NCBI GenBank assembly: GCA_963767925.1
Contig: CAVYGB010000008.1
Coordinates: 1,600,001 to 1,664,000 of the forward strand
DNA from: an uncultured delta proteobacterium
GTDB taxonomy: Bacteria > Myxococcota_A > Polyangia > Fen-1088
Length of the DNA stretch: 64,000 nt
Direction of reading: 5' to 3'
Made by a program: the position numbers and the translations under genes. Shown piece after piece: positions 7,146 through 31,979 of the stretch; within the stretch, counting starts at the first letter, position 1, and every line of letters starts with the position of its first letter. The notes under the pieces are model-generated. The model did no database searches and was not told the DNA's origin. It worked only from the letters and a program-made list of their open reading frames with translations.

Positions 7146-7310
7146 CTAGTCCCCTGGAACGGTGATTTCTTGCATATCTCGGCGGTCCTCTTCGTCCCTG
7201 GCTGCGTTGCTCGTCGGTTAAATACGCCCGGTATTCGCCCTCCTCGCGCCTTGCCAGGAACGAAGATGCCTCGCCGACATATGCAAGACTTCACCTTTCC
7301 AGGGGACTAG
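7146..7310 (-). mobile_element. CTAG-bounded ~160-bp hairpin element, copy A (MITE/REPIN-like)
   Basis: Perfect 14-bp terminal inverted repeat CTAGTCCCCTGGAA...TTCCAGGGGACTAG extending into ~57-bp imperfect arms. The 50-nt core (7203-7252, minus strand) is homologous to the cores at 30987 and 31148. Confidence 0.8.
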
Positions 7311-29538: not shown

Positions 29539-30930
29539 CTACGAAGCTCGCGGCTCCGGCTTCTGGTCGGAGAGGTCCACCTGTCGGGCCAGCTCGAGCA
29601 GTTGCTCGGGCGTGTTCAGGCTCGGATCGTCGAGCACCCGCTCGAGCAGCCCTTCGAGGATCTTCCCCACCTGGCGGCCCGGGGCGATGGCCAGGGCCTG
29701 CATGACGTCGCGGCCGCCGACCGCGAGATCCTTCACCGTGAGGACCGCGTCGGCCGAGACCACGTCGGCCACCCGCTGGCGCAGGTCGCGGGTCTCCAGA
29801 TCGGGCTGCTCGCCGAAGCCCCGTCCGACCACGTCGGCCTCGCGCAGGGCCAGCAGAGCCGGCAGCTCGGCCACCCCCACCCGGCGCAGGAACCGGCGCA
29901 CGGTGCCGTCGCTCCATTCGGGCGTGTAATAGAACATGTGGTTGGCCACCAGGCGCTCGACGGTCTCCCGCTCGGCCCCGGGGAGCTTGAGGCGATGGCA
30001 GATTGTCACCGCCATCTCGGCGCCCAGGTGCTCGTGCCGGTAGAAGCTGTATTCGCCCGGCATCCCCGGCTTTGGCTCGCGGGTGCGGGGCTTGCCGACG
30101 TCGTGAAGGAGGGCGCCCAGCCGGAGCACCACCTCGCCCGAGGCGCCGGTCAAGGTGGCGAGACCGTGTCCGTATACGTCGTACTTGTGAAAGCGGTTCT
30201 GGGTGCAGCCGCGGCCCTCGAGCAGCTCGGGGAGCACCTCGGCCAGCAGGTCGGTCTCGCGCAGGAGATCGACGCCGCGGGCGGGGGCCTCGCTGGCCAG
30301 GATCTTGAAGAGCTCGTCGCGGACCCGCTCGGCCGAAACCTTCCGGAAGGAGTCGAGGGTGGCGGGGATGGCCCGCAAGGTGGGCCCGTCGATGGTGAAG
30401 TCGAGCTGGGTTGCTTGCCGGACCGCCCGCATGGGCCGCAGGCCGTCCTCGCGGAAGCGCTGCAGAGGATCGCCCACCGCCCGCACGAGCCGGCGCCCGA
30501 TGTCTCCCTGCCCGTCGAACGGATCGAGGAGGGCCCCCGACAGGGGATCGTAGGCGATGGCGTTCATGGTCAGATCGCGGCGGGCCAGGTCCTCCTCGAG
30601 CGTCTTGCCGAACTCCACCGAAGAGGGGCGCCGCCCGTCCAGGTAGACCCCCTCGCCCCGGAAGGTCGTGACCTCCACCGGACGGCCGGCGGGGGGCGCC
30701 CCGGTGAGGACCGTGACGGTGCCGTGCTGCAACCCCGTGGGGATGGCGAACCGCTGACCGAACAGCTTCAGCACGGCGTCGGGCGCGGCGCTGGTTGCGA
30801 CGTCGAAGTCCTTCGGCGAGCGCCCCAGCACCAGATCGCGCACGCCGCCGCCCACCAGATGAGCCTGGTGTCCTGCCTCCTGCAGGCGCCGGCACACCGC
30901 CACCACGTCGTCGGGTATCCGGGCGCGCAC
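29539..30930 (-). CDS. cca: Class II tRNA nucleotidyltransferase (CCA- or A-adding) with HD domain
   Basis: LVGGGVRD, DFDVAT, EVTTFR..Y.DGRRP, EDLARRDLTMNA, RFREDGLR, LLHDVGKP. Confidence 0.88.
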   Translation of the reverse strand: MRARIPDDVVAVCRRLQEAGHQAHLVGGGVRDLVLGRSPKDFDVATSAAPDAVLKLFGQRFAIPTGLQHGTVTVLTGAPPAGRPVEVTTFRGEGVYLDGRRPSSVEFGKTLEEDLARRDLTMNAIAYDPLSGALLDPFDGQGDIGRRLVRAVGDPLQRFREDGLRPMRAVRQATQLDFTIDGPTLRAIPATLDSFRKVSAERVRDELFKILASEAPARGVDLLRETDLLAEVLPELLEGRGCTQNRFHKYDVYGHGLATLTGASGEVVLRLGALLHDVGKPRTREPKPGMPGEYSFYRHEHLGAEMAVTICHRLKLPGAERETVERLVANHMFYYTPEWSDGTVRRFLRRVGVAELPALLALREADVVGRGFGEQPDLETRDLRQRVADVVSADAVLTVKDLAVGGRDVMQALAIAPGRQVGKILEGLLERVLDDPSLNTPEQLLELARQVDLSDQKPEPRAS

Positions 30931-31094
30931 TAGTGCCTCACGGCAGAAGATCGGTCATGGTTTCGGCGTCGAGGCGCCCCGCCAGCAAGGCGCGACGACG
31001 AGCAATACTGAACGCATTTCGAGGAGGAGCAACGCCGCTGGCGCGGATGCATCGGCGGCGAAACCATGGTCGAGATTCTGCCATGGGGCACCAG
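30930..31094 (+). mobile_element. CTAG/CCAG-bounded ~160-bp hairpin element, copy B
   Basis: Arms CTAGTGCCTCACGGCAGAA...TTCTGCCATGGGGCACCAG; 50-nt core at 30987-31036. Confidence 0.8.
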
Positions 31095-31254
31095 TGCACC
31101 GCTCTCGAAATAGCGTCAAGGATCCGCCGACAAGCCTGCGGCCCCGCGAGGCGCGACGACGACGAATATCCGGCATATTCCGAGGAGGAGCAACGAAGCG
31201 GGGGCGCAGGATCGTCGGCGCAGCCTTGACGACATTTTGCGAGCGATGCACTAG
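31091..31254 (+). mobile_element. CCAG/CTAG-bounded ~160-bp hairpin element, copy C (tandem with B)
   Basis: Arms CCAGTGCACCGCTC...CGTCAAGG and CCTTGACG...GAGCGATGCACTAG; 50-nt core at 31148-31197. Confidence 0.8.
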
Positions 31255-31979
31255 CGGGTCTCGAGGGCCTGGCCGGCCGCCTGCAACGCGGCCAGGGCGC
31301 GGGCGGCGGCGTTCTGCTGGGCCTCTTTCTTGGACTTGCCCAGCGCGCGGCCGTACTCCTTGCTGCCGAGGTAGATGGCCACCTCGAAGGTCTTGTCGTG
31401 GTCCGGCCCTTCCTGCGCGATCACCGTGTAGGTGGGCGCCAGGTGCAGGCGGGCCTGGGAGATCTCCTGCAGGCGGGACTTGAAGTCCCGATCGGCCGCG
31501 GTGGAGGCCTGGGCCAGCTCGCTCTCGAACAGCCGTTCGGCCACCCGGTAGGCGGCGTCGAACCCCCCATCCCGGTAGACCGCTCCCACGAGGGCCTCGA
31601 GGGCGTCGGCCAGGATCGAGCGCTTCTGGCGGCCGCCGGCCTGCTCCTCGCCGCGGCCGAGGAAGATCCACTGGCCCAGGGCGAGCACCTCCGCCACCCG
31701 GGCCAGACCGGCCTCGTTGACCAGGGCCGCGCGCTTCTTCGACAGCTCACCTTCGGGATGCTCCGGGTGGTGGCGCATCAGGAGGTCGCTCATCACCAGG
31801 GCGATCACGGCGTCACCGAGGAACTCGAGCCGTTCGTTGTCCGCCCTGCCCTCCTCGGCCCGCTCGTTGAGCCAGGACTTGTGCGTCAGCGCAGTCTCAC
31901 ACAGGCGCTCATCGAGAAAGTGGTACCCGAGCCGTTGCTCGAGCGCGCTGTACCGGGCGTCACCTCTGGCGGCGATCAT
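31251..31979 (-). CDS. rnc: Ribonuclease III
   Basis: ALTHKS, NERLEFLGDA, LADALEALVGA; dsRBD with DFKSRLQE, GPDHDKTF, SKKEAQQNAA. Confidence 0.97.
   Translation of the reverse strand: MIAARGDARYSALEQRLGYHFLDERLCETALTHKSWLNERAEEGRADNERLEFLGDAVIALVMSDLLMRHHPEHPEGELSKKRAALVNEAGLARVAEVLALGQWIFLGRGEEQAGGRQKRSILADALEALVGAVYRDGGFDAAYRVAERLFESELAQASTAADRDFKSRLQEISQARLHLAPTYTVIAQEGPDHDKTFEVAIYLGSKEYGRALGKSKKEAQQNAAARALAALQAAGQALETR

Follow-up and report, generated by a model that had tools for sequence, protein, structure and literature searches.

The window, by which we mean the whole 64-kb stretch of DNA that was analysed, contains three palindromic elements of about 165 nt, A, B and C, each bounded by CTAG and each carrying a 50-nt core as its hairpin tip; the core is common to all three, and the arms differ by type (Table 1). 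The earlier note had described these three cores, and all of them are present in the sequence where it had placed them. Folded symmetrically, with position i opposite position 50 − i, they reproduce the features that it had claimed: core A has G:C at 10:40 and 13:37 where cores B and C have C:G, core C has T:A at 22:28 where the other two have C:G, GA lies opposite GA at 8-9/41-42 and at 11-12/38-39, and an AATA/TATT stem surrounds a 5-nt loop. At 21:29, the B copy of the window has A·C, and the other two B copies of the genome have A:T.

Table 1. Positions in the window of the three elements, their cores and the conserved arm motifs
Feature	Position	Strand	Basis
Element A, MITE copy of the genome's commonest subfamily	7146..7310	-	bounded by CTAG at 7307-7310 and 7146-7149
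Core A	7203..7252	-	sequence
Element B, complete MITE copy of the widespread 'canonical' form	30930..31094	+	sequence
Left-arm conserved motif CGAGGCGCCCCG of the canonical interior	30970..30981	+	alignment with 62 other full-length copies from other genomes
Core B, the hairpin tip	30987..31036	+	sequence, pair statistics
Right-arm conserved motif CGCGGATGCATCG of the canonical interior, partner of 30970-30981	31042..31054	+	canonical alignment columns 117-128
Element C, second MITE copy, of another subfamily, abutting B	31091..31254	+	sequence
Core C	31148..31197	+	sequence

Element B begins with CTAG at 30930-30933 and ends in a degenerate CCAG at 31091-31094, which it has in common with element C. 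Its 49-nt arms (30927-30975 against 31049-31097) are 80% complementary, and each of its strands folds into a single long hairpin (−94.8 and −92.2 kcal/mol; z −7.3 and −7.9). Within core B, the G·A/A·G doublets are formed by 30994-30995 with 31027-31028 and by 30997-30998 with 31024-31025, and the apical stem pairs 31004-31008 with 31014-31018 around the loop at 31009-31013. The left-arm motif holds the G of a G·U/T wobble that 62 of the 63 full-length canonical copies retain. In core C, three stacked G·A/A·G doublets arise where the (GAC)3 of the 5' half lies opposite the (GAG)3 of the 3' half. The right CTAG of element C (31251-31254) contains the TAG stop of a minus-strand ORF at 31251..31979. 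The ends of element A, GTCCCCTGGAA..., correspond to those of IS630-family insertion sequences in two relatives. In the window copies, nothing resembling a promoter or a terminator was found.

A 19-nt core pattern, allowing at most one mismatch, had 66 matches in the 9.34-Mb genome, 28 on the forward and 38 on the reverse strand, and the same pattern read backwards had 0; the core is therefore more than a chance occurrence. Filtering of 64 candidates, one of which was a false match in coding DNA, left 63 copies, which lie singly or in pairs among ordinary genes; type A accounts for 38 of them, type C for 22 and type B for 3. Variability within subfamilies is low (37 type A and 22 type C copies), and single copies carry changes at GA positions, for example those at C13:170463, C8:69148 and C2:837411. 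Neighbours of different subfamilies that have one CTAG in common occur as B-C in the window and as A-C at four other places, which shows insertion into the terminal CTAG of a resident copy and not slippage. CTAG is scarce in this genome, with 2140 occurrences against 24547 expected from base composition.

To place the elements among known insertion sequences, their boundaries were compared across genomes. Among 157 distinct copies with enough flanking sequence, 70 had clean TA..TA bounds and complementary ends; these carried CTAG on both sides in 51 cases, measured 157-161 nt between the flanking TAs in 65, and displayed 32 different 8-nt ends. Tenzen and Ohtsubo reportedly found in 1991 that IS630 prefers TA within CTAG. 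A complete insertion sequence of a relative (locus L209 in genome G024) has a 364-aa DDE_3 ORF between TAGTCCCCTGGAAACGG... and ...AATCACCGATCCAGGGGACTA, inside CTAGs; its ends are the type A ends, and another insertion sequence (L228) has the same left end. Because of the insertion at TA/CTAG and the type A ends common to these two insertion sequences, the elements, at least those of type A, are to be classed as IS630-type MITEs. None of the 24 insertion sequence loci examined had type B or type C ends.

The interior of the elements is not found in the insertion sequences: the covariance model built from the core matched at 1 of 24 IS630 loci, and that match was an adjacent MITE. In this assembly, which is 84% complete, there were 0 DDE_3 matches, tblastn with the L209 transposase returned two weak fragments, and an autonomous partner was sought and rejected, no long element having type A, B or C ends. 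A link to IS630 by co-occurrence likewise did not emerge, as DDE_3 exceeded the cut-off in 8 of 32 core carriers and in 13 of 29 non-carriers among 61 genomes, and the expected positive association was not seen. Type A ends formed 28 pairs at about 160 nt and 2 pairs less than 10 nt apart, 14 ends remained unpaired, and no pair occurred at other spacings up to 4 kb; type A ends being paired only at about 160 nt, no interior-less derivative has spread. Extra matches to the 11-nt type C end were mostly chance matches in coding DNA. A coding core was also rejected: in elements of about 160 nt, two of the three forward core frames contain stops in individual copies (by eye), and the third is open in the copies read, but the G/C swaps are non-conservative there and the pattern fits pairing.

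The core extends well beyond this genome. The pattern search found it in 22 of 61 genomes (this genome and 60 relatives), and the covariance model gave matches in 32 of the 61, this genome included. An exact-pattern scan with one genome per species returned at least 117 stretches, and the labels of the MAG records span at least six phyla. Among the matches listed, the titles name Vicinamibacterales/Acidobacteria, Polyangia, Sandaracinaceae and other Myxococcota, Gemmatimonadota/Longimicrobiales, Gammaproteobacteria (Ca. Rariloculaceae), Thermodesulfobacteriota, Desulfobacteraceae, Ca. Deferrimicrobium and Bdellovibrionales, together with single records of Margulisiibacteriota, Oscillospiraceae, Promethearchaeota and Klebsiella; these last few single-record labels may be binning errors. 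The type B arm motifs CGAGGCGCCCG and CGGGATGCATCG were found again in 70 distinct copies of other genomes, and the window's type B is the widespread 'canonical' form. All 16 of the 16 most divergent model matches proved again to be full-size hairpins, most of them with visible CTAG or TA flanks. An interior of about 110 nt, above all the 50-nt tip, is kept across phyla, and the outer ends vary by lineage.

The core was absent from 2.9 million viral contigs (0 matches), and the plasmid collection contained no core match. No Rfam family reached its gathering threshold, the best score being 17.7 bits against 75 (v-snoRNA-1) with an E value of 0.52, which is chance level. The core is not described in the literature searched, although these elements may be among the MITEs listed in the supplement of PMC11602168. 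IS630-type MITEs as such are already known; the new points are that the core crosses phyla, that the two strands differ and that the helix has a G·A/G·U design.

The three subfamilies alone represent only one independent swap event, and covariation was therefore assessed in a wider, gap-free alignment of 138 distinct cores from many genomes with 10 flanking bases. Paired cells made up 89.7% of this alignment and 71.3% of shuffled versions, and cells changed on both sides numbered 480 against 163. The covariation score was 0.438, a value attained by 0 of 500 shuffles, which gave 0.135; the significance drawn from shuffles is overstated by kinship among the sequences, which leaves unaffected the slid controls (0.057-0.131) and the occurrence of multiple pair types. 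The covariation that the earlier note had proposed at 10:40, 13:37 and 22:28 is accordingly strong in the larger alignment. Position 10:40 is G:C in 75 copies, C:G in 59 and C·C in 4; 13:37 is G:C in 89, C:G in 33 and G·U in 10; 22:28 is C:G in 70, G:C in 32 and U:A in 32; and 17:33 is G·U in 72, G:C in 49 and A:U in 5, with no A·C. Three combinations of 10:40 and 13:37 occur, demonstrating that the two pairs swap independently.

Consistent results were obtained with RNAalifold on 63 full-length canonical copies, which yielded 44 pairs, 31 of them with compensatory changes. The AT-rich stem covaries as well once the search pattern is dropped, GAATAC/GTATTT being replaced by GCATAC/GTATGT, GCTTGG/CCAAGT or CCGTAC/GTACGG. 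Compensatory changes thus exceed those of the controls and G·U/T exceeds A·C on one strand, the behaviour of a structured single strand under selection.

The helix is not built from Watson–Crick pairs alone: non-Watson–Crick combinations occupy 11 of the core's 25 opposed positions, and there are no bulges. In the 138-copy alignment, the GA and AATA/TATT columns are fixed by the search pattern, and GA conservation was taken from other sets. GA-S-GA was present in all element 3' halves recovered with a 5'-half pattern, and in model matches taken one per genome, in which GA was not required, the four doublets were kept in 27/29, 29/29, 27/29 and 28/29 cases, with some bias since GA was already present in the training set of the covariance model. 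One lineage (L206) has G:C and C:G in place of G·A and A·G at 8:42 and 9:41, a double change which shows that the two bases at each of these positions are indeed opposed to each other. Outside the fixed columns, 132 of the 138 copies have G·A at 4:46 and 125 have A·G at 2:48; at 5:45, 119 have C·A and 10 have A·G. A third doublet lies at 15:35 and 16:34 in 53 copies, or at 14:36 and 15:35 in about 34.

We then compared the two strands. When the arms outside the core are oriented by the core, purine·purine mismatches number 325 and pyrimidine·pyrimidine mismatches 75 (a ratio of 4.3), and wobble-type mismatches comprise 133 G·T against 61 A·C. These counts compare the left arm with the reverse complement of the right, using one representative for each of 58 arm clusters, and are non-independent, as the clusters share ancestry. 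Under RNA parameters, the 70-nt core region folded more stably as the purine strand in 130 of 138 copies, with a mean of −28.9 kcal/mol compared with −23.6 for the complement and an advantage of 5.4 kcal/mol. Under DNA parameters, this held for 116 of the 138, and the means of −12.9 and −11.3 kcal/mol lie only 1.6 kcal/mol apart. On the complementary strand, the G·A and G·T positions become C·T and A·C mismatches. Selection on the fold of one strand only, as the note had suggested, is the point on which covariation, the persistent GA doublets, the arm mismatches, the kept wobble and the fold energies agree: selection maintains the fold of one strand, the purine-rich one.

The genomic context was examined with flanking genes predicted by our own GC3-based gene caller. 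Convergent, same-sense, antisense and divergent contexts were counted 25, 13, 13 and 10 times in this genome, 3, 3, 10 and 2 times for the 22 elements of other relatives, and 13, 6, 9 and 0 times for the 34 elements of the relatives G024 and G034. Convergent contexts exceed divergent ones because insertion targets TAG stops. Summed over these sets, with at most two elements counted twice, element orientation relative to the flanking genes was same-sense in 22 cases and antisense in 32, which is not a significant difference; gene stops, read from the context tables, adjoin the left end in 22 cases and the right end in 27. The sign of the local GC skew, which is weak, agrees with element orientation in 36 copies and disagrees in 27. 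The mismatch asymmetry therefore tracks the element's own orientation, with no clear link to the direction of host transcription or replication.

To account for these observations, we tentatively propose that the fold serves the element itself, in cis, and is needed for its spread, a reading that we consider quite possible while holding it with less than even confidence. A role for the element rather than the host is suggested by the lack of orientation bias, the lack of promoter-like and terminator-like sites in the window copies, the absence of the interior from insertion sequences and the absence of interior-less derivatives. According to this proposal, the purine-rich strand, when single-stranded, would snap back into a rod that brings both element ends together and would offer a G·A-studded helix to a protein, which might be the transposase or come from the host. 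Where G·A, G·G and G·T replace Watson–Crick pairs, the palindrome of the duplex would be broken but one strand would stay foldable, and cruciform formation and folding of the other strand would thereby be disfavoured. Only copies that keep the fold would propagate, and lineages that lose it would not spread.

With regard to the working molecule, we lean slightly towards the DNA strand, which may well be the active form though we stop short of calling it probable; this leaning follows from the cis requirement together with the absence of transcription signals and orientation bias. A transcript is a possible, if doubtful, candidate. In its favour stand the conserved G·U, the wider energy difference under RNA parameters and the known duplex-only chemistry of IS630 transposases. 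Conserved G·U and tandem G·A pairs are expected of protein-binding RNA, which counts against the DNA reading. Also against a single-strand DNA step, IS630/ISY100 transposition in vitro is a double-strand cut-and-paste reaction at TA, for which the available part of PMC2170065 describes no single-strand step. Other findings that weigh against the proposal are the small energy advantage with DNA parameters, the lack of a clear link to replication direction, the missing cognate transposase in this 84% complete assembly and the failure of DDE_3 to accompany the core among the 61 genomes. A more specific form of the proposal, rather unlikely in our estimation, is that the rod acts as a recognition handle of a mobilisation specific to single-stranded or structured DNA or RNA, the interior and not the terminal repeats being read by the mobilising protein; the ends would then be free to drift or be swapped, since the interior is what gets recognised.

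Apart from this cis role for the element, the fold may matter because RNA does the work, an alternative that we regard as plausible but on the whole doubtful. Here the purine strand, produced by read-through, would fold into the rod, and its G·A and G·U pairs would bind a protein or would resist or direct RNases. Such an RNA would act in trans, on behalf of the element family or its host, or else in cis on the adjacent mRNA, as Correia/NEMIS and ERIC/YPAL hairpins are reported to do. The strong covariation in both the 138-copy and the 63-copy alignments fits such a role, as do the pair that is G·U in all but one of 63 copies, the 72 cases of G·U at 17:33 without A·C, the 5.4 kcal/mol by which the purine strand is favoured (130 of 138 copies, RNA parameters), and the many copies that lie directly after stop codons and would be transcribed; bacterial MITE hairpins with RNA-level effects are also on record in the available part of PMC2229807. 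However, the window copies have neither promoter nor terminator, Rfam holds no matching family, and the unbiased orientation (22 against 32, and 22 against 27 at stops) makes a cis role on host mRNAs unlikely. A 'public good' acting in trans would, moreover, let interior-less copies spread, and none is seen for type A ends.

Y1 transposases use strand-specific hairpins, which speaks for a REP/REPIN-like ssDNA hairpin moved or maintained by a Y1 (HUH) transposase of RAYT or IS200 type, with the IS630-like ends incidental. This genome encodes 11 Y1_Tnp paralogs, two of them within 1 kb of a copy, and copy number is high without an IS630 transposase both here and in G034. Nevertheless, a RAYT/Y1 link is not supported, since each of the 11 Y1 genes lies between long inverted sequences of another kind and, as a rule, is not flanked by the core, and Y1_Tnp occurs in 16 of 32 core carriers against 10 of 29 non-carriers; none is present in the high-copy genomes G024, G034, G029 and G018, and TA/CTAG flanks and ends in common with IS630 are not Y1 features. 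We therefore hold this explanation to be quite improbable. Still less credence is given to a double-stranded site for a dimeric or bending protein, in which the apparent covariation would be the paired change of half-sites. The AT-rich centre (AATA..TATT) in a 71% GC genome would suit an IHF-like protein, and Correia elements have a published IHF site (PMC2229807, available in part). Against it, G:C and C:G variants at 10:40 and 13:37 coexist in one genome, the GA doublets break two-fold symmetry in both halves, covariation extends to the AT-rich stem in matches found without the search pattern, and the asymmetry of the arm mismatches would be meaningless for duplex DNA. Finally, the pattern might have no function and reflect common descent with arm-to-arm correction, G·A and G·T being poorly seen by repair. 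Changes at GA positions in individual copies indicate that single copies are not strongly protected, and kinship inflates the shuffle significance. Yet the same positions are mismatched from phylum to phylum, although the arms can no longer be recognised as alike, arm-to-arm correction would erase rather than keep 11 of 25 non-Watson–Crick positions, and the asymmetry follows element orientation instead of replication or transcription, all of which renders this explanation improbable.

The hairpins of REP/REPIN-RAYT systems, attC sites and IS200/IS605 are strand-specific DNA, keep structure more than sequence and are recognised in single-stranded form, and in these respects they resemble the elements described here. 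The present elements differ from them in having symmetric purine·purine pairs instead of extrahelical bases, TA/CTAG flanks, IS630-like ends and no linkage to RAYT. Tandem sheared G·A pairs, in which GA lies opposite GA between Watson–Crick pairs, occur in RNA (the hammerhead core, loop E, the kink-turn) and in DNA ((GGA)n and GCGAAGC mini-hairpins). In contrast to these known motifs, the core has three to four doublets, one at every third position, with single covarying pairs between them. Several candidate identities were rejected: a kink-turn, as there is no three-nucleotide bulge 5' of the G·A pairs and the 138-row alignment is gap-free; ribozymes, the hammerhead included, and other known RNAs, as Rfam gave no match; and likenesses by eye to loop E, boxA, dif/Xer and SRP, whose defining features are absent or not conserved.

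Among mobile elements, the closest comparison is with RUP (repeat unit of pneumococcus), the textbook IS630-family MITE (PMC2229807, available in part). Like the present elements, RUP and the IS630-type MITEs are small and non-coding, have IS630-family-like ends, and insert at TA with TA duplication (same source). In the available part of PMC2229807, RUP has no reported signature of structure or function beyond its inverted ends; the elements here, in contrast, combine an interior of about 110 nt kept across phyla with at least 32 different ends, covariation and strand-specific mismatches, and this interior is not part of the insertion sequences. Correia/NEMIS and ERIC/YPAL are also palindromic MITEs with TA at their flanks; they measure 100-170 bp, and in transcripts they fold into long hairpins. 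Unlike the present elements, they are confined to Neisseria or to enterobacteria, their motifs are an IHF site and RNase-sensitive RNA hairpins, and the available part of PMC2229807 describes no tandem G·A design or cross-phylum core for them.

MITEs are usually treated as junk defined by its ends, and here the ends vary while the interior is kept across phyla with a fold signature on one strand. Should the fold be needed for movement, IS630/Tc1-mariner-type MITEs would be expected to spread through a single-strand step or with the help of a structural cofactor, which touches on the long-standing problem of how MITEs become so much more numerous than the elements they derive from. If the rod were in addition the recognition handle, the result would be a mobile element defined by structure across bacterial phyla and not a hitch-hiker of IS630. 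Should the RNA be what works, it would represent an abundant and widespread structured RNA absent from Rfam, and a mobile structured RNA with a conserved protein partner would be equally novel. The motif itself provides a natural case for the study of helices that alternate Watson–Crick and tandem G·A pairs, and the core offers a practical marker for annotating such elements in soil and sediment MAGs.

CTAG is strongly depleted in the genome that carries the window (G000): 2140 occurrences were observed across the whole genome against 24547 expected from base composition, an approximately 11-fold under-representation, while trinucleotide frequencies predict 8165. By an estimate from the 63 MITE copies, MITE ends account for approximately 5% of all CTAGs in G000. 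Locus L209 of the related genome G024 holds a complete IS630-family IS with type A ends, and at its right end a MITE of another subfamily lies exactly in the CTAG, indicating that IS ends themselves act as targets.

A second CTAG-bounded repeat, approximately 50 nt long and much shorter than the MITE, was also noted in G000. It contains GGGACTGTTTTCGAAGTAGTCGGGTCCCCTCGCTTCGCTCGGGCCCGA, often adjoins MITE copies in the flanks of type A copies, and is not present in the window; it looks like another small element with the same CTAG target as the MITEs. Short isolated pieces of the type A end, such as CTAGTCCCCTGGACTAG, also sit between CTAGs in G000 flanks and may represent excision footprints or solo ends.

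Positions of the elements and genes discussed
Feature	Location	Genome
MITE of another subfamily at IS right end	L209 2098-2261 (C1)	G024
~50-nt repeat, examples	beside type A copies C2:102338, C2:213569, C8:319311, C8:3139513	G000
Type A end pieces, examples	near C9:230218, C8:155248, C1:93454	G000
Right-arm motif, example	window 31042-31054	G000
Y1 (HUH) transposase-like genes	C10:706280-706984, C2:2017302-2018012 and nine other places	G000

Two loci from other genomes carry informative versions of the 50-nt hairpin core. At L206 (contig C24 of G049), the first G·A/A·G doublet is replaced by G:C and C:G pairs; this substitution was seen in one lineage, which would provide a natural test case for the need for the doublet. 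L064, from a record titled as an Oscillospiraceae MAG, carries a core copy with AT-rich arms in AT-rich flanks, indicating, if the bin is right, that the MITE interior is kept despite very different base composition. The right arm of the canonical form contains a conserved GGGATG(C/G/A)ATCG, always with an ATG inside. This ATG-bearing motif is not general, because types A and C lack it.

Among the matches listed, G024 copies were unevenly distributed between strands (15 minus vs 4 plus), and all six copies on G034 contig C6 were on the plus strand; these counts may reflect chance or a local strand effect. No orientation bias relative to flanking genes was observed among the copies of the two genomes.

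G000 also encodes 11 paralogous Y1 (HUH) transposase-like genes of approximately 225–240 aa each. Several of them are bordered by simple tandem repeats and by long inverted repeats particular to them, so the genes appear to form a distinct IS200-like family, expanded in G000.
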